From a virus (Duplodnaviria > Caudoviricetes): a DNA stretch of 64,000 nt. The notes under the pieces were generated by a model that was not told the DNA's origin, made no database searches, and saw only the letters and a list, made by a program, of their open reading frames with translations. The position numbers and the translations under genes are program-made. Below, piece by piece: positions 22,798-30,380 of this stretch (position 1 is the stretch's first letter; each line of letters opens with the position of its first letter). The stretch lies in IMG/VR virus record IMGVR_UViG_3300042013_000067, positions 32,001 through 96,000 of that record, one strand, 5' to 3'.

Positions 22798-24897
22798 ATG
22801 CTCGAACTGTTACTTAGCTTCGGACGGACCCTAGGTGCTAACGACAATACGGACATTCCATTTGCACCAGACACCCCATTCAAGGGTATCGTACCCTCGG
22901 CGTCTTTTATTACGGGTGATGCACTGGCCGCTCAAATCGGTCTGACTGCTGGTGATCCGCTTAACACCAATGCGGGTTGGTTACACTTTATCGAAGACAA
23001 CGGCCTAGAACTACTGATCGCCAAGAAGCCACTGCGCTACAACTTATCGTGGGAACAAGTCAATACCGCAATAAGTGGTGGGGCTAGGGAACTTACCATC
23101 AACGGCGACGTTTACATTTGCCGTAACATCACCGGTGCAATAACCACTACAGCCGCAGCAGTGCCGTCTAACGCCGGTGGTGAGTGGAACCGTTACATGT
23201 ACAACGTCTATGACCAAACTGATCGGTCCGGGATCCCTGAGGCGTTGCTCTGGGGTAATTACACTGAGGCTATGTTGGGCATCCCAACAACATCAGGTGG
23301 TAATGATCTCAGCAATGCTGCCTTCACCATGTGTTCGGAGACCCTTACTAACGGGTATTGCCTGCGTGGTAACGACTGGCAGAATTCCAGTGGTGGTCAC
23401 AACATCAAAGGCATCTGGAACATGCCGGCGAACAACCCACAGACGTACTACGGTTGGCGTCCGGTGTTGGTGAAGAAGTCGACACTACCATCTTCACCAT
23501 TTAAAGGTGAGGTATTGGCAGCGGATCTGATCACTGGTCCAGCGTTGGTCGCGGCAGTGGGTGTCACTACGGGTACAGCGTTTGGTAACGGGAGCCCGGA
23601 TTGGCTTAAGTTCGTAGACAATGGTAAGACATTCTACATCGCCAAGAAGCCATTGCGTACCGGTGTTACATGGGAGATCCTTAACGGTTTCGGTGCGGTA
23701 TTCGGAACCAAGGTTATCACTATCGGTGATAAGCAGTATCGGGTACGTCTGATGACAGGCGGTAACGCCGACCCTGCCAGCACTGGAGGTGGTGAATACA
23801 ACAACTACTTCTCACGTTGCACTACCTACTACACGGGTGCTGCTTCCGATCGCTTTGCCAACTACAGCGGTGCTGACGTAGGTTGGGCGGGTGGTACTAG
23901 CTCCGGTGAACTCTCCCTGATTCAAGAACATACCGGTTCGTCAGGTCCAGGGGCGCGTGGTTACCCAGGCTTCTTGGGTCTGTGGTATCAAGTTGCAAAC
24001 ACTACGCACTCGGGTTACGGATGGCGTCCAGTGTTGGAACTGATCGGTGATACACCGGTGTTGGTGGATACGTGGAGTCAGATCGCCACACTACCAGCTG
24101 GGGTCAACGGAGCCAGTGCTTGTGTGATTGCGGATAAGCTCTATGTCTACGGTGGTCAAGATGCATCCTTTGCCGTTAAGGGAGCCTTGTACGAAGTCAA
24201 TCTGTCTACGGGTGAGGTCATCACCAAAACAGCTGACATCCCACGTCGTTATCACGCCGCTGTAGCTATCGGTGGGAAGATGTATGTCTACGGTGGTTAC
24301 ACCACGGCATATGACGCAGCCGTACGGATCTATGATCCAGCTACTGATACCTGGAGTGCTGGTCTGGCTGGTATCGCAAGTGACCGTCATGGCTACGCGA
24401 TGTACAACAGCAAACTCTATGCATGGGGTGGTAACAACGGCACCACACTGAGTCAACTGAGAACATATACCCCAGCCGGCAACACTTGGGCTAACGTCAC
24501 CATTACTGGTGTAGCAGCGGCATCTGTTTACTTAGGTTCTGCTGATGTCTTCGGTAACTATGCCTACACACTCACAGGCTACAACAGCCCGAAACAATTC
24601 CGACAAGTCAACCTACTCACTAACGTGGGTGCCGCATTGCCTGACGCGCCACATGGTGTCTACGGTCATGCACACGGTTCGATGAAGAACGGTATCTACG
24701 TCTTCGGTGGTACAGTTGACACTGTTGACAAGGACAAGAGTGTACTGCGTTTCGACGTCAACACACTAGTCTGGAGTTACCACGGCACTATTCCGTACAC
24801 GATCGGTGAACGCGCAGCATCTGCTCAAGATGCCAGCAACATCTATCTGGCGGGTGGTGTAGGTGCTCCTACCGCAGTTTGGAAGTACACCCCGTAA
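22798..24897 (+). CDS. Virion structural / receptor-binding candidate: two GWRPVL-terminated domains plus C-terminal Kelch beta-propeller
   Basis: Repeated GDALAA.IG...WL.F...IAKKPLR...W...GWRPVL domain; Kelch repeats LYVYGG, MYVYGG, LYAWGG, IYVFGG, IYLAGG. Confidence 0.75.
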   Translation: MLELLLSFGRTLGANDNTDIPFAPDTPFKGIVPSASFITGDALAAQIGLTAGDPLNTNAGWLHFIEDNGLELLIAKKPLRYNLSWEQVNTAISGGARELTINGDVYICRNITGAITTTAAAVPSNAGGEWNRYMYNVYDQTDRSGIPEALLWGNYTEAMLGIPTTSGGNDLSNAAFTMCSETLTNGYCLRGNDWQNSSGGHNIKGIWNMPANNPQTYYGWRPVLVKKSTLPSSPFKGEVLAADLITGPALVAAVGVTTGTAFGNGSPDWLKFVDNGKTFYIAKKPLRTGVTWEILNGFGAVFGTKVITIGDKQYRVRLMTGGNADPASTGGGEYNNYFSRCTTYYTGAASDRFANYSGADVGWAGGTSSGELSLIQEHTGSSGPGARGYPGFLGLWYQVANTTHSGYGWRPVLELIGDTPVLVDTWSQIATLPAGVNGASACVIADKLYVYGGQDASFAVKGALYEVNLSTGEVITKTADIPRRYHAAVAIGGKMYVYGGYTTAYDAAVRIYDPATDTWSAGLAGIASDRHGYAMYNSKLYAWGGNNGTTLSQLRTYTPAGNTWANVTITGVAAASVYLGSADVFGNYAYTLTGYNSPKQFRQVNLLTNVGAALPDAPHGVYGHAHGSMKNGIYVFGGTVDTVDKDKSVLRFDVNTLVWSYHGTIPYTIGERAASAQDASNIYLAGGVGAPTAVWKYTP

Positions 24898-24900
24898 CGG

Positions 24901-24932
24901 CATAAGGCCCTCCCTAAACGGGGAGGGCTATG
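24901..24932 (+). terminator. CATAAG-family terminator
   Basis: GCCCTCCC-TAAACG-GGGAGGGC then TATG. Confidence 0.75.
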
Positions 24933-24976
24933 CAATCGAACAGACTATAGTTAGGAAGTATGTAGGGGTACCAGTC

Positions 24977-26320
24977 ATGCTGGAAATGTTATTGCATTAT
25001 AACCCCCCATCCGGATCGGGACCGTTCACCCCACCTGAGGTGATCGCAGGTAAGGCCTTCCAAGGATGGGTTGCTAGTGGTGATTTTATAACGGGTGATG
25101 CGCTAGCCACAGCCATTGGTTTGGCGGCTGGTACGTCGCACAACAGTGACGCAGGCTGGCTTCATTACATCGATGGCGCACGTGAGTTCTACATCGCACG
25201 TAAAACACTGCGATATAACCTAAGCTGGAGTCCGATTGAGATTGCCTTAGGTAGCCCAAATAAGATCATTCAGATTGGGGCGGACTATTACCAAGTCAAA
25301 CAAATGACGTCGATGTCGGTTGATCCTTTTTCTAGCATCGTCAGTAACGATGGTGGTGGCGATTGGAACAAATATATCTACCCATTGGTCTCTGGGCCGG
25401 CACGGGCACAGTTCACGGCTGAGGTATGGTCGTACTATACCGAAACCGATCTTGGTCTGTCTGCAGTATGGGGGACCCAACCAAATGGTTCGATCACCCA
25501 TACGGTGGAAAAACACAACACCATACCTGATATTCGTGCCGCTCGTGGACGAACCTATTCAGGTAGCACTGCAGTGTCCAGTGTAACTGGACGCACTGTG
25601 TATAATGCAGCTAACCCTAGCGAAGGTAACGCAGGTACAGGGTTAAGTCAGTATGGCTGGCGCCCGATCTTAGAGAAAGTACCTGAGCCACCACCGGCTG
25701 ATCTGTATTATGGTGAGGTAGCTTCAGCTGACTTCATTACGGCATCGGCTCTGGCGACCGCTGTAGGTGCGAGCGCATTGGGTACAGTAACCAATGCTGA
25801 CGTCAGTTGGCTGAAGTTCCGTATTGATGGTAAGACCCAGTACATCGCCAAGAAGCCATTGCGTCATGGCGTCACATGGAATAGCCTCAATGCACTAGGT
25901 CTGGTGTTTGGCACCCAGACGGTGGTTATTGGTGGACAGACGTATAAAGTGCGCCTACCCACAGGGACCTCGGTACCTTCAGCCAACGTATACAACCCAG
26001 CGCACATGGGTGGCGATTTCAACGACATGATCTACCCAATCTACGGTGGGGTAGTGATTAACCACGCGATGGTTCAAGCCTACCCGCGCTGGGCAGCCTT
26101 CACCGATGCCGAGCTTGGCCTCAACACCGTGAAATCACCAATCATCAACGGTGGTTTGACCTTGTGCCAAGAACTCGCTGCTCAAGGGGGTTATCTGGTG
26201 CGTGGCTATAACGACAATGACAACGCCGGTGTAGCTCAGTTGGTAGCTGGTTGGTACGTCACTGGAGACTCCACGATACAATACTCTGGTTGGCGTCCAG
26301 TGTTGGAGCTGGTTCCTTAA
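24977..26320 (+). CDS. Virion structural protein, paralogue of the preceding gene (two GWRP-terminated domains, no Kelch)
   Basis: Starts MLEMLL like MLELLL of the paralogue; same domain twice; the track start at 24863 crosses a terminator. Confidence 0.78.
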   Translation: MLEMLLHYNPPSGSGPFTPPEVIAGKAFQGWVASGDFITGDALATAIGLAAGTSHNSDAGWLHYIDGAREFYIARKTLRYNLSWSPIEIALGSPNKIIQIGADYYQVKQMTSMSVDPFSSIVSNDGGGDWNKYIYPLVSGPARAQFTAEVWSYYTETDLGLSAVWGTQPNGSITHTVEKHNTIPDIRAARGRTYSGSTAVSSVTGRTVYNAANPSEGNAGTGLSQYGWRPILEKVPEPPPADLYYGEVASADFITASALATAVGASALGTVTNADVSWLKFRIDGKTQYIAKKPLRHGVTWNSLNALGLVFGTQTVVIGGQTYKVRLPTGTSVPSANVYNPAHMGGDFNDMIYPIYGGVVINHAMVQAYPRWAAFTDAELGLNTVKSPIINGGLTLCQELAAQGGYLVRGYNDNDNAGVAQLVAGWYVTGDSTIQYSGWRPVLELVP

Positions 26321-26323
26321 CAG

Positions 26324-26357
26324 CATAAAGCCCCTCCCGTGATGGGAGGGGCCTATG
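26324..26357. terminator. Bidirectional CATAAAG-family terminator
   Basis: CATAAAGCCCCTCCC-GTGAT-GGGAGGGGCCTATG at a convergent junction. Confidence 0.8.
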
Positions 26358-26362
26358 TCCGC

Positions 26363-27199
26363 TTAGAACGTTTTATATTCCGCGCGAAGGGTTTCGACAT
26401 GCCTGCCTGTTTTCAGATGGGTCTGGATGATGTCGTAGTGGTCGACCTTGACATGGATGTGGTATTTCACATCCTCTTTAAGGTCAGGCCAACTGTAAAC
26501 GGAAGTACCGTCAGAATTCTGCGACACCACTAAGTCGGCTTTGTTGGCGGTGTCCCATTCAGCTTCGATCAACTGACAGTTCAGGACGAGTGCTTTTTTC
26601 ATCTGTTCAGCACATTCCTGTATCGAGCCCCCTAGGTTAACGGTGACTGGGGCAAGTGCGTCACGTACCCCACCCAAGGTGTTTGCCATCAACATGGTGG
26701 CTTTCATGGCTTTGGCCATAGGGGGATCAATGAGCTCGTCAGGGCGGTAGCTACCGATGCCCGGTGAGTAGAACTGGATGTGGTCAATGCTGCGATTGTC
26801 ACCGCGTTGGGCGAAGGACTGTGCCTTACCCTGAATCTGGTCGAACTCTTCCTTCGTCAGGGTAACTTGACCTGCCTCGTAGTCGATCAACGCGTAGTAG
26901 CAAAGACGCGCCACCTTCCAGTAGGTGATGTCGTAGTTGTCATCGTCCTGACACGTATCGTGCCCGGTCACCAGGTTGATGTGGTGCTCACCCAGTGCGC
27001 GCTGTACGTCCTTACGCTCCTCCAACATCTCAATGACCGCCGTGAGTTCAAGGAACTCATTGCGCAGCTCCATGATGGCATTGCGGCCTTTGTACTGACT
27101 GGCCACACCGTGATGCTGACACTTGAGGGCTTCTTTGGTGACTTCGGAAGCTTCTTCAGCTAGCTTGCCCAAGAGGTACTGCGTCCAATTCATGCTCAT
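26363..27199 (-). CDS. MazG-like NTP pyrophosphohydrolase domain fused to an unknown C-terminal region
   Basis: N-terminal LGKLAEEASEVTKEALK...LRNEFLELTAVIEML fits the all-alpha NTP-PPase ExxE...ExxD/E pattern. Confidence 0.65.
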   Translation of the reverse strand: MSMNWTQYLLGKLAEEASEVTKEALKCQHHGVASQYKGRNAIMELRNEFLELTAVIEMLEERKDVQRALGEHHINLVTGHDTCQDDDNYDITYWKVARLCYYALIDYEAGQVTLTKEEFDQIQGKAQSFAQRGDNRSIDHIQFYSPGIGSYRPDELIDPPMAKAMKATMLMANTLGGVRDALAPVTVNLGGSIQECAEQMKKALVLNCQLIEAEWDTANKADLVVSQNSDGTSVYSWPDLKEDVKYHIHVKVDHYDIIQTHLKTGRHVETLRAEYKTF

Positions 27200-28028
27200 C
27201 TAACATCTCCGCTGGTCTATTGAGAAATTCGTCAATGATCGGCAGTACCCGATCGAGGTCCGTAAGAAGGAACAGGTGTCCATCGTTAAACACGTGAAAC
27301 TCACTGTTCGGTATCTGTAGAGCTAACACCTTCATGTTAGTCAGTGGTATCAACGGATCGTCGTTACCCGCTAACACCAAGGTAGGTTGCTTAAGCTTGT
27401 GCAGCCAAGGCAGACTGGACCACCAGTACACCGCCGCCACCTGATAGTAATAGCCATAACTACTGCGATGGGCATGGTTGGCTTTGTCCTCTGCCATCTT
27501 CTCAGCATGGATAGCAGCCAAGGCTTTGTCATAGCGGAACTTACCCCCGTAGATGGACGGAGCAATACTAGCCGCATACGCAGGGTCAGTATAGCGCCGT
27601 GGACTGGCCATCAGGCACAACACACGCCAACTCGGCATGAAGGAGATAATCCCCGCTGAAGTAGCTGCCAGTATCAACCGGCGGCAACGCTGAGGATAGT
27701 CGTGTGCGAACTGCTGCGCTAGGAAGCCACCCCACGACAGACCGATAACATCTACTTGACCATAATCCAAATGGTCCAGCATTTGGGTGACGATCTTGGT
27801 CAAGCCAGAGAAACGGTAGGGGAGCAGCGGGGTAGATGAACCCCCAACACCTGGAACGTCAAAGGCAATAACTTCCAAATCAGGACGCATTGCTCGGACA
27901 AAAGGTAGCACCAGCTCCAGACTGGCGCCGATACCGTTGAACATCAGAAGCGGGGTTGTCTTTTTAAGGCCAGGGCGTACTGCTACCCTGATGGTCTGCC
28001 CATTAAGATCGATTGTTTTAATATCCAC
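27156..28028 (-). CDS. phaZ: Intracellular mcl-poly(3-hydroxyalkanoate) depolymerase
   Basis: Colinear with Pseudomonas PhaZ: AVRPG..TPLL.FNGIGA.LELV.PF, EVIAFDVPGVGGSSTP..PYRF, lipase box GLSWGG, QQFAHDYP.RC, MASPRRY, LAGNDDPLIP, DGHLFL. Confidence 0.95.
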   Translation of the reverse strand: MDIKTIDLNGQTIRVAVRPGLKKTTPLLMFNGIGASLELVLPFVRAMRPDLEVIAFDVPGVGGSSTPLLPYRFSGLTKIVTQMLDHLDYGQVDVIGLSWGGFLAQQFAHDYPQRCRRLILAATSAGIISFMPSWRVLCLMASPRRYTDPAYAASIAPSIYGGKFRYDKALAAIHAEKMAEDKANHAHRSSYGYYYQVAAVYWWSSLPWLHKLKQPTLVLAGNDDPLIPLTNMKVLALQIPNSEFHVFNDGHLFLLTDLDRVLPIIDEFLNRPAEMLDEHELDAVPLGQAS

Positions 28029-28029
28029 T

Positions 28030-28479
28030 TTATGCCGTATCCTTGACGTCGAACATGCTATACGAGTCGAGCATCAGCGCTGGCTCATTGAGGAGCTCGG
28101 CTAGTGCTCGGGCTTGTGACACCGGTGTAGTTGCAAAACGATCTGAAAGCAGGTTACCTGCCCTCATAGCTATTACCCTTAGCTCTGCGAAGAGAGCTGG
28201 GTTTTCATGCACCCACCGACGCCACAGCTCCTTGTAGGCAGCATATACATCGACCGTAGGGTCGAGTGGTGGTTTTCCCTTACCAATACGCCAGTCATCA
28301 ATGCCAGGAGTACCGTAACCCTTCACGGAAAGCTGGTAGTGCTCCTCAATGGTGAACCCGTCAGAAAGACGGGCTACCATTGCTGAGAACCGACGGTCTC
28401 CTTTCGTGGAGCATTCTAAGCCGCCAAATCGCGACCACTTGAATTGTCCACTGCTGGTTGAGGACTGGCCGCTTGCTTT
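28030..28479 (-). CDS. Conserved phage domain (ECSTKGDRRFSA...TIEEHYQ family, possibly NADAR-like); N-terminal part lacks an in-frame start
   Basis: Frame open from ~28505 with no ATG/GTG/TTG until 28380; the family-like segment KWSRFGGLECSTKGDRRFSA lies upstream of that ATG, partly inside the polymerase 3' end. Confidence 0.65.
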   Translation of the reverse strand, partial: KASGQSSTSSGQFKWSRFGGLECSTKGDRRFSAMVARLSDGFTIEEHYQLSVKGYGTPGIDDWRIGKGKPPLDPTVDVYAAYKELWRRWVHENPALFAELRVIAMRAGNLLSDRFATTPVSQARALAELLNEPALMLDSYSMFDVKDTA

Positions 28480-30380
28480 TTTGCTTTGTGTGCCAAGTAG
28501 GCATCAAGCATGGTATCGAATGCTGGAGCACCCATGAGCTTCTGTGTGATCTCGACCGCGTTCACGCGACCGCCCGTTAAGTTGACCCCGAACTCACGCC
28601 GTACTGCTTCGGTGATCCCCTGAATCTGACAGAACTCCATAACGCAGGTTTCCCGTGCGATGTTGAGGATCTGCGAAACGTTCGGGTAAGTTGACACAAT
28701 GTCCAAGTCGGCTACGTGTGTAAAGATCAGCGTGAGATAATCTCGCATTTCCTCCACACAGTCCATACCCTCTGCCGCCGCCATATACGAAGGCAACGTG
28801 ACGATCCAATCGTCATGGCCAATCACGAACTTATCCAGTTCGGTGGACATCTGATCGGACGCTGTACCAATCACCGACTTGTTCGGACGGTTCAAGTACC
28901 AGAAGTGCATATCGTCGCAAAGACGTTTTGGGTTGGAGTTAAAGTTCTTGAAGTCCGAGTTCTTCGAATACATCGTAATCGACGAAGCCAGATCTTTAGT
29001 CTTCTCGTCCAGTTGCTCCAGGCGAATACTGTCGACGATGTTGTAAACACCGTAGATGATCTTGTGCTTGGTCTGCATCACTTCGTGCCAACGCAGACCG
29101 GTGTGCTGATCGGTTTCCTTGATCTTCAGTTTATCGAAGTCCAACTTCACTTCACAGACGTCACCCACCTTCACCATGTCGTGGTGGAAGTTCTCCACCA
29201 GTTCATCGTTGATGTAGTAGTAGACGAATCCACCCTTGCCACGGACCATGTCATTGGCTTTGTCGATAAATGCTTGGATATCGCCCGGCGCTTTGATCTT
29301 GGCTTCGTACTCGCTATTGAGTTCCTTCTTCAGAATCGCAGACAGGGCATACGACGGATCTTTACCGTTGGCCAGTCGAGTAATGCGATATACAGTCATC
29401 GCATCAATGCACTGGAAGGTCGCTGGATGGGTTACCCAGTTCCACCGGTCTTCCACGTTAATGGACATGACCTTACCAGAAGCCGTGGTCTTCTGTGTGT
29501 TACCCTTACGGTAGTTGAAGTACTTGTATTTCTGCGGTACCGTCGGGTCACTGAACACCGAAGCCAGATCAATACCTTCTTTCTCCAGAGCACGGATGAT
29601 TTTGCTCATGTCGAAGTCCATGTTCCAGAAAGCAAACCAATCTGGCTTCCAGACGTGGAGCATCTCGATACAACGCATGACCACTTGGCCTGGCGTATCA
29701 GCGATCAGAACTTCAATGTTCAGCTTACGTTCATCGATCAGAGACGGAATAAGTCGCTTGGCCTCAGCCAAGGTCTCAGCTACGGGGTCAGCGATATCAC
29801 CGATCCAGCTCTTCAGATAAACTAAGCGGACGTTTTCTTTGTGACTGACCGACATGCAGATAATGTCATCTGTGCCATTGACTACGTCGGTCTCAATGTC
29901 ACCACCACCGACTGTGTTAAAGCTGATGGTTTCTGGATACTTGCTGCGGTACTCAGCCTTGATGCAGCATGCGGAGTTAACGTCAGCACCGTACACGTAC
30001 GGGTTACGTTGGATAACGCGTTGTTGTGGGCGATGGCCTGGGTTAATGTCCAGGACTTTGGCGATGCTCTTAACCAAGTCGAGTTGCGTAGTCTTGAACT
30101 CTTGCAGATTGCTAACGAGTTCGTAGTCTTTCTTCTCTTCGTGGTTACGACGGCCTTTATGGGTAATCCAGAAAGGGCGTTTATAGTTCTCTTCAAACCG
30201 CAGACGGGGAATACGCCGACCGTCATCCAGGTGTACAACTTCCTTTACAATCAACATGTCGCTGAGGCCACGTTCTTGGTCAACGACATAAGTAATATGC
30301 TTTGCTTCAAAGCCTGTAGGTTTTACGATGTTGCTCACGAGATTCCCCTTCAGGTCTGTGTACGTACGATAACGTGGCAA
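28416..30380 (-). CDS. polB: Split family-B DNA polymerase, exonuclease-containing subunit (phiKZ gp82-like)
   Basis: ExoI DIETD, ExoII FWNMDFD, ExoIII YNIVD, polymerase motif A DLDIVSTYPN; motifs B and C absent, as expected for the split chimallivirus polymerase. Confidence 0.88.
   Translation of the reverse strand: MPRYRTYTDLKGNLVSNIVKPTGFEAKHITYVVDQERGLSDMLIVKEVVHLDDGRRIPRLRFEENYKRPFWITHKGRRNHEEKKDYELVSNLQEFKTTQLDLVKSIAKVLDINPGHRPQQRVIQRNPYVYGADVNSACCIKAEYRSKYPETISFNTVGGGDIETDVVNGTDDIICMSVSHKENVRLVYLKSWIGDIADPVAETLAEAKRLIPSLIDERKLNIEVLIADTPGQVVMRCIEMLHVWKPDWFAFWNMDFDMSKIIRALEKEGIDLASVFSDPTVPQKYKYFNYRKGNTQKTTASGKVMSINVEDRWNWVTHPATFQCIDAMTVYRITRLANGKDPSYALSAILKKELNSEYEAKIKAPGDIQAFIDKANDMVRGKGGFVYYYINDELVENFHHDMVKVGDVCEVKLDFDKLKIKETDQHTGLRWHEVMQTKHKIIYGVYNIVDSIRLEQLDEKTKDLASSITMYSKNSDFKNFNSNPKRLCDDMHFWYLNRPNKSVIGTASDQMSTELDKFVIGHDDWIVTLPSYMAAAEGMDCVEEMRDYLTLIFTHVADLDIVSTYPNVSQILNIARETCVMEFCQIQGITEAVRREFGVNLTGGRVNAVEITQKLMGAPAFDTMLDAYLAHKAKKQAASPQPAVDNSSGRDLAA
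28476..28482 (-). promoter_or_regulatory. Candidate -1 frameshift heptamer A-AAA-AAG with downstream stem
   Basis: In-phase GCA AAA AAG in the polymerase frame; GCGGCCA/TGGTCGC and GTCC/GGAC stems begin 3 nt downstream. Confidence 0.6.

Follow-up and report, generated by a model that had tools for sequence, protein, structure and literature searches.

The phaZ homologue and its operon

We analyzed a stretch of 64,000 nucleotides (hereafter, the window) corresponding to bases 32001–96000 of the IMG/VR record IMGVR_UViG_3300042013_000067, a 283,622-bp tailed-phage genome that carries direct terminal repeats (DTR) and is rated 100% complete. The gene in question, phaZ, occupies 27156..28028 of the window on the minus strand as an uninterrupted open reading frame (ORF) with a GTG start and a TGA stop, and encodes a 290-amino acid homologue of the intracellular-type medium-chain-length polyhydroxyalkanoate (mcl-PHA) depolymerases. 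An original prediction, made from the letters alone, had described the PhaZ as full length, with its catalytic motifs intact. Every motif it quoted was located, and the protein scored 382.6 bits (E 1.1e-114, profile positions 5–265 of 276) against the NCBIfam equivalog model TIGR02240, poly(3-hydroxyalkanoate) depolymerase, for which the curated cut-off on the whole-protein hidden Markov model score is 250.6 bits. A canonical host PhaZ scores 602 bits on this model, and the runner-up NCBIfam family for the phage protein, 3-oxoadipate enol-lactonase, reached 100 bits, far under its own cut-off. Pfam returned only generic alpha/beta-hydrolase families, PHROGs returned only the generic phrog_789 “esterase/lipase,” and amino acid identity to Pseudomonas PhaZ enzymes was 56%–66%.

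An AlphaFold2 model built from a 60-sequence alignment had a mean predicted local distance difference test (pLDDT) score of 91.7 and a predicted template modeling (pTM) score of 0.90, with the last 11 residues alone disordered. When this model was compared with Swiss-Prot using Foldseek, the top match was P26495, the PhaZ of P. oleovorans (template modeling [TM] score 0.89/0.91, 56% identity, E 2e-40), and the remaining matches had E-values about 20 orders of magnitude weaker. The nearest structures in the PDB, which holds no solved structure from the TIGR02240 family, were lid-bearing esterases (TM score 0.76–0.78). Judged by sequence and modeled fold, the window gene is a member of the Pseudomonas-type intracellular PhaZ family.

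The nearest named relative of the carrier is Pseudomonas phage Noxifer, whose host is P. fluorescens SBW25; across the polymerase region the two are 79% identical at the nucleotide level. The prediction had also supposed a phage with a nucleus and a PhuZ spindle, and at the gene level this agrees with our tblastn matches, as the carrier genome encodes homologues of chimallin (38% identity to phiKZ gp54 over 601 amino acids, E 6e-107) and of PhuZ (33% identity over 236 amino acids, E 2e-36). Since it encodes both, the carrier is, by gene content, a nucleus-forming type of phage.

Within the window, phaZ belongs to a leftward operon on the minus strand. The first gene encodes a DNA polymerase subunit (28416..30380; phrog_3011, E 1e-225; 83% amino acid identity to Noxifer gp083) and is followed by a 116-amino acid ORF (28030..28380; phrog_9995; 78% identity to gp082) whose stop lies 1 nt ahead of the phaZ start, then by phaZ itself, with AAGGA 11 nt upstream of its GTG, and then by a gene for a 278-amino acid homologue of MazG-like nucleoside triphosphate pyrophosphohydrolases (26363..27199; 70% identity to gp080), the start of which overlaps the 3′ end of phaZ by 44 nt. 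The match of this last protein to phrog_4856 (E 1.4e-9) covers residues 2–63, and the ~215 residues beyond the first 63 have no family match. A GC-rich 40-nt hairpin at 26323..26362 (dG −34.8 kcal/mol, z −6.6 versus shuffles) separates the MazG-like gene from a convergent plus-strand gene at 24863–26320, which encodes a 485-amino acid virion/fiber-like protein (phrog_1062). The hairpin is probably a bidirectional terminator that closes the phaZ operon. Near-copies of it are found elsewhere in contigs of the same phage and in related phages from other metagenomes, in the manner of a dispersed terminator-like repeat. The operon structure suggests that phaZ is co-transcribed with the DNA polymerase genes; phiKZ-type phages use their own RNA polymerases. 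None of the listed sequencing runs that contain the PhaZ sequence is an RNA run, which says nothing either way on expression.

In Noxifer, the neighbors of this slot are kept in the same order with 64%–83% amino acid identity, but the slot itself holds gp081, a 149-amino acid protein unrelated to PhaZ, and no PhaZ was found in that phage. As gp081 does not resemble PhaZ and no homologue of it is present in the carrier genome, the slot was replaced rather than decayed, and a decayed PhaZ remnant in Noxifer is ruled out. Because the neighbors are conserved while the slot gene is unrelated and PhaZ is absent, phaZ is, on this comparison, an accessory cassette inside a conserved replication operon. 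Identical PhaZ fragments were present in Logan contigs from a second, independent rhizosphere study (X2), and in a biofilm metagenome contig (X4; 87%–90% identity) the phrog_9995 ORF and the polymerase genes again adjoin PhaZ, of which the N-terminal half is present. The sample from which the window derives is likely a rhizosphere metagenome too. Assembly chimera and contamination are ruled out by the packed operon, the X2 and X4 contigs, and the phage-matching base composition.

Catalytic residues, lid, and hinge insertion

Residue correspondences were established in a PhaZ alignment of 130 rows, made up of 49 viral sequences, 41 of unknown context, and 40 bacterial sequences from phaC-linked Pseudomonas loci. 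The reference was PhaZKT of P. putida, in which Ser102/Asp221/His248 form the triad and the lid spans residues 133–192 (PMC12504323). The predicted nucleophile of the phage protein, Ser98 (codon 27735..27737), lies in GLSWG (residues 96–100) and aligns with Ser102, while Asp224 (27357..27359) in DDPLIP (residues 223–228) aligns with Asp221 and His251 (27276..27278) in GHLF (residues 250–253) with His248, all codons being on the minus strand, as are the features that follow. The Asp-to-His spacing of 27 is the same as in PhaZKT, and the Ser-to-Asp distance of 119 is lengthened here by a 7-residue insertion. Ser, Asp, and His are invariant across all complete sequences of the alignment. The FNGIG loop (residues 30–34; 27927..27941) corresponds to PhaZKT 34–38, with N31 at the position of Asn35; its N and both G residues are invariant in the 130 sequences, and its I is present in 129.

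The lid, or cap, domain comprises approximately residues 129–195 (27444..27644), equivalent to 133–192 of PhaZKT, and is all-helical in the AlphaFold2 model, in which helices of the lid region span 134–141, 143–146, 149–160, 162–165, 168–184, and 192–200. Here the prediction had noted a short insertion relative to host enzymes, quoted as AEDKANHAH (residues 179–187). The alignments confirm an insertion and place it at the lid hinge as 7 residues, AEDKANH (179–185; 27474..27494). Compared with the 40 phaC-linked Pseudomonas enzymes, the extra residues align as A179–H185 with ambiguous boundaries, just ahead of the equivalents of PhaZKT Ser184 and the YYWQLF hinge. The insertion was not found in any phaC-linked Pseudomonas PhaZ displayed in the alignments; one of equal length is present in the three closest phage homologues (L004, L005, and L007), and other phage clades have a shorter one or none. 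The hinge itself reads YYYQVA versus YYWQLF in PhaZKT, with 3 of 6 residues changed. In PhaZKT, activity is abolished by deletion of the FNGIG loop (34–38) or the YYWQLF hinge (190–195) or by mutation of Asn35, and S184F raises esterase activity while lowering depolymerase activity 16-fold (PMC12504323). As far as the sequence informs us, the lid-hinge insertion is the sole feature that leaves the substrate specificity of the phage PhaZ open.

Distribution, composition, and phylogeny of phage PhaZ

In a collection of 5.8 billion proteins, the top matches to the window PhaZ were unnamed metagenomic proteins at 70%–77% identity, with named Pseudomonas PhaZ appearing from ~66%. A scan of GTDB species genomes gave 590 relatives, the best 80 of which were all from the Pseudomonas group (58%–64% identity), and a scan of IMG/VR gave 51 loci with PhaZ relatives (35%–75% identity). 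About half of the viral loci come from two or three metagenomes (L021–L051; samples 3300041407 and 3300041411), so the count of 51 overstates independent sampling; strict clustering of flanks resolved the viral loci into ~21 distinct contexts. When the flanks were probed with P. paraeruginosa PhaC1 and PhaC2, phaC was found beside phaZ in 79 of the best 80 bacterial loci and in none of 54 viral or metagenome loci. All 10 phage homologues tested exceeded the TIGR02240 cut-off, with scores of 291–477 bits.

The settings of these viral genes are varied. Two complete DTR siphoviruses of 48.5 and 49.1 kb carry phaZ between portal/head and tail/tape-measure genes, and complete DTR genomes of 229, 104, and 86 kb also carry it, as does a 116-kb phage contig that also has genes for NAD salvage, RNase H, and a Ro60-like protein. 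In P0005 and P0006, the nearest two relatives, phaZ lies amid long arrays of small ORFs. Judging from PHROGs matches and the DTR genomes, the viral settings inspected are bona fide phages. In the 48-kb DTR siphoviruses, the gene stands alone on the opposite strand in a moron-like position, and in lambdoid contigs its place is the nin region, with NinB, NinG, and a NinI-like phosphatase downstream of it; L028:7953-8786 and L047:6301-7128 exemplify these settings. Homologues of the 485-amino acid phrog_1062 protein, 46%–53% identical to it, are encoded one gene away from phaZ and convergent with it at two further loci (L004:7853-9190 and L005:5795-7111); L007, a close relative of L004, lies in the 229-kb genome, where no chimallin match was found. 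This arrangement may reflect joint movement of the two genes or a hot spot of recombination at the site.

The prediction had further read the codons as phage-like rather than high-GC and had proposed that only the degradative step was captured, phaC1 and phaC2 being absent. Both observations hold. The GC content of phaZ is 51.9% (55.7% at third codon positions [GC3]) and that of the phage genome 52.0%, 12 points under the mean of 64.4% (GC3 82%) for 79 bacterial phaZ genes. A tblastn search of the whole carrier genome with all P. paraeruginosa pha-cluster ORFs found no phaC1, phaC2, phaD, or phasins, with phaZ the only match. The phage phaZ is thus not in a pha cluster of the bacterial kind, where phaZ is flanked by class II PHA synthase genes. 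With phaZ the only pha gene detected, the phage carries the degradative step alone, and, with a GC that matches the genome, phaZ is fully adjusted to the composition of the phage.

To place the gene among its relatives, an IQ-TREE phylogeny of 73 sequences was built with phaC-linked PhaZ of non-Pseudomonas Gammaproteobacteria as the outgroup; these replaced L057, and L056 was retained as an ingroup row, both being distant viral loci with very long branches. Only 4 of 400 sampled genomes of Gammaproteobacteria passed the TIGR02240 cut-off. The phaC-linked Pseudomonas PhaZ form a single clade with short branches and support of 100/100. The window PhaZ falls outside it in a separate 28-row clade (support 96/86), the members of which are phage-borne wherever context was inspected, with the exception of one P. 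lini gene described below. Further phage PhaZ clades are placed nearer the Pseudomonas clade. Because phages evolve faster and branches are long, we claim neither which way transfer went nor how many captures took place; L056, for example, groups with the second of two PhaZ-like copies in G410, a non-Pseudomonas gammaproteobacterium. In that bacterium, two tandem PhaZ-like genes directly follow a class II-like phaC (L144:1584-3900) and are 36% and 38% identical to the window PhaZ, with one of them very divergent and joining the viral long branch.

Seven phage–phage PhaZ pairs with unsaturated synonymous divergence (dS) gave ratios of nonsynonymous to synonymous divergence (dN/dS) of 0.04–0.16, a signature that phage PhaZ is under purifying selection. 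Between the window PhaZ and its nearest relatives, dS is saturated. An old acquisition, as originally suggested, is supported by the separate clade, the saturated dS, and the fully adjusted GC. Since this phage-borne clade stands apart from the phaC-linked Pseudomonas clade, the phylogeny indicates that PhaZ was not recently captured from a host and that its lineage is a long-standing resident of phages that has passed from one kind of phage to other, unrelated kinds. As a host-type gene in a complete, bona fide phage genome that is kept by selection, it can be classed as an auxiliary metabolic gene (AMG).

The P. lini exception is an orphan PhaZ-like gene of strain CC269 (L058:5995-6807; the same gene is in L140:10001-10807), the sole bacterial locus of the 80 without an adjacent phaC. 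It lies in an ordinary chromosomal region, has a GC content of 47% versus 56% for its surroundings, and nests with 100/100 support inside the clade of the window PhaZ, made up of phage-borne and unknown-context sequences, which points to a probable phage-to-bacterium transfer. Its neighbors include another alpha/beta hydrolase and a histidine kinase.

Probable mobilization of host PHA and alternative roles

The analysis shows that the window gene belongs to the PhaZ family, retains the triad and lid, is under purifying selection, has resided in phages for a long time, sits in an operon with a DNA polymerase gene, and comes without synthesis genes. We consider it fairly probable that PhaZ mobilizes host PHA for ATP and carbon during phage growth; supply of carbon and energy had been part of the original prediction and is the best-supported function here. 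In this scheme, a catalytically competent serine hydrolase with a lid, located in the cytoplasm and transcribed together with the DNA polymerase genes of the phage, would hydrolyze granule-bound host PHA to (R)-3-hydroxyalkanoic acids, which host FadD would reactivate for beta-oxidation and the tricarboxylic acid (TCA) cycle to yield acetyl-CoA, reducing power (NADH), and ATP. The released carbon and ATP would allow a phage of 284 kb to replicate in rhizosphere pseudomonads that are rich in carbon but limited for nutrients and have very low PhaZ of their own. Activity on mcl-PHA, the timing of expression, and the benefit to the phage are what we infer in this scheme. Accumulation of PHA under carbon excess is typical of rhizosphere pseudomonads, and mobilization of PHA is supported by origin, since the source in all likelihood, like the second independent holder of the gene, is a rhizosphere metagenome. 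In P. putida, native PhaZ is undetectable by western blot, and raising PhaZ alone increases beta-oxidation and TCA flux and makes stationary-phase ATP ~10-fold higher (PMC8764540). A role in waking a starved host would fit both the place of phaZ in the polymerase operon and its overlap with the MazG-like gene. The pairing of PhaZ with a MazG-like protein may mark a starvation-override pair.

Among known systems, PhaZKT (P. putida KT2440/KT2442), in the same family as P26495, is closest in kind, with the same alpha/beta-hydrolase core and helical lid, triad positions, and FNGIG loop, a similar length, a disordered C-terminal tail, and no signal peptide, at 56%–66% identity between the window PhaZ and Pseudomonas enzymes. 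The window PhaZ differs in being phage-encoded, in lacking phaC1/phaC2 flanks, in its 7-residue hinge insertion and YYYQVA hinge, in its GC (52% versus ~64%), and in its place in the 96/86 clade outside the 100/100 Pseudomonas clade, with its activity being predicted. The Ralstonia jumbo phages RP12 and RP31 likewise hold a member of the PhaZ family in a phiKZ-related phage, and the RP12 copy has an intact triad and scores 291 bits on TIGR02240 in a genome with chimallin. These copies, in phages of a different host genus, are 45% identical to the window PhaZ, sit in a helicase and acetyltransferase neighborhood, lack the lid insertion, and have a long branch. They were listed in 2017, without analysis, as “poly(3-hydroxyalkanoate) depolymerase” (RP12 ORF269 and RP31 ORF266; Matsui et al., PMC5468394), while RefSeq names the protein “esterase/lipase.” A functional parallel is PhaZBd (Bd3709) of Bdellovibrio bacteriovorus, in which an invader uses its own depolymerase to exploit the PHA of Pseudomonas prey; the predator gains from degrading prey mcl-PHA, probably via ATP (PMC4834554). 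PhaZBd is, however, an extracellular-type enzyme with no lid, not homologous in the family sense, and belongs to a cellular predator rather than a virus. As with the cyanophage AMGs psbA and talC, a host-derived metabolic gene would keep energy and carbon flowing during infection, but the target of phage PhaZ would be a storage polymer and not photosynthesis or central metabolism. Earlier reports of PHA-related AMGs differ in that they concern synthesis genes (phaC and others, PMC12013262) or a short-chain poly(3-hydroxybutyrate) (PHB) depolymerase, the latter a candidate in a Gloeobacter prophage (PMC13317609), and are at the annotation level only.

Several points weigh against PHA mobilization. 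A full-length homologue was found only in RP12 and RP31 among 50,697 GenBank phage records, and the close relative Noxifer lacks PhaZ, so the gene is dispensable for this type of phage. Where a shortage of nitrogen or phosphorus is what makes PHA accumulate, extra carbon may leave the true limitation unrelieved. In Bdellovibrio, the number of progeny was not raised by mcl-PHA degradation (PMC4834554). Polymer specificity, moreover, cannot be taken for granted, because the lid hinge, with its insertion adjoining the S184 equivalent and its YYYQVA sequence, differs from that of the characterized enzymes. This last point feeds the alternative that the phage clade has drifted to an esterase acting on some other host ester, such as 3-hydroxyacyl oligomers, the 3-(3-hydroxyalkanoyloxy)alkanoic acid precursors of rhamnolipids, or other lipids, and not on granules. 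The insertion and altered hinge do fall in the region that sets the esterase/depolymerase balance of PhaZKT, PHROGs places the protein only in a generic esterase/lipase family, and Ralstonia phage RP12 keeps a family member at 291 bits. Ralstonia stores short-chain PHB rather than mcl-PHA. Nevertheless, a TIGR02240 score well over the equivalog cut-off, 59%–66% identity to characterized-type enzymes, conservation of every residue known as essential, the equal conservation of several other phage clades without the insertion, and the high specificity of PhaZKT and its variants for mcl-PHA (PMC12504323) lead us to regard a changed substrate as unlikely. That phaZ is instead a neutral passenger, whether a recent host fragment or a mis-assembly with no role in the phage, is hardly credible. 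The slot is variable, as Noxifer holds a different gene there, but the GC of phaZ equals that of the phage and is 12 points below bacterial phaZ, the scanned bacterial representatives of GTDB species contain no copy above 65% identity although matches in phage contigs go up to 77%, dN/dS is 0.04–0.16, two further independent metagenomes hold the gene in the same order, and it is tightly coupled within its operon.

The original prediction had also offered that dissolving PHA granules could clear cytoplasmic space for the phage nucleus and PhuZ spindle. We judge it very unlikely that PhaZ is kept mainly to dissolve mid-cell granules so that a chimallin nucleus can grow and a PhuZ spindle can center it. 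The carrier does encode both homologues, and granules in P. putida are tethered along the nucleoid by PhaF, where the nucleus forms. A search of eight complete phage genomes that carry PhaZ, with chimallin of phiKZ as the query, revealed three separate chimallin-encoding lineages, namely this phage (38% identity), the 307-kb G002 (46%), and RP12 (26%, E 1.6e-23). However, the other five (229, 104, 86, 48.5, and 49.1 kb), including the two siphoviruses, gave no chimallin match, nor did the incomplete lambdoid contigs whose phaZ lies in the nin region. The PhaZ proteins of the three chimallin phages are divergent (59% and 45% identity) and lie at different genome positions, and the nucleus-forming relative Noxifer manages without the gene. 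The lambdoid and siphovirus carriers certainly build no nucleus, and the family is under purifying selection in phages unable to form one. With chimallin encoded by only three of the eight genomes, the idea is unsupported, and as this type of gene is common to many unrelated phages, it has no specific link with the phage nucleus; from its distribution, nucleus clearing cannot be the reason why phages retain the PhaZ family. It could still come as a side benefit, since granule removal would occur under either reading. There is a slim chance that in the chimallin carriers (this phage, G002, and RP12) PhaZ has a second, physical role, with early dissolution of nucleoid-tethered mid-cell granules freeing the space and the track that a PhuZ spindle would use to center and enlarge the nucleus; if so, storage granules would be a mechanical obstacle or passive defense that nucleus-forming phages must remove.

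A literature search found no study of a phage PhaZ or phage mcl-PHA depolymerase, and intracellular mcl-PHA degradation is still called a Pseudomonas-specific trait (PMC12504323). The PhaZ enzyme family, the AMG concept, and the unanalyzed RP12/RP31 listing are already known. New here are a jumbo phage of the nucleus-forming type as the carrier, the replacement of a cassette in the polymerase operon by comparison with Noxifer, the location of the insertion at a functionally sensitive lid hinge, and the distribution test against a nucleus-specific role. As natural lid variants, phage PhaZ are of interest for the enzymatic recycling of mcl-PHA bioplastics. PHA can form a large share of dry mass in rhizosphere and wastewater pseudomonads, and how phages handle or profit from this host store is essentially unstudied. 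For nucleus-forming phages, phaZ would be an accessory cassette and not nucleus machinery. A diverse PhaZ lineage, apparently older or faster-evolving than that of the host genus itself, lives in very different phages, which suggests that phages commonly mobilize carbon stores in hosts with a nutrient imbalance.

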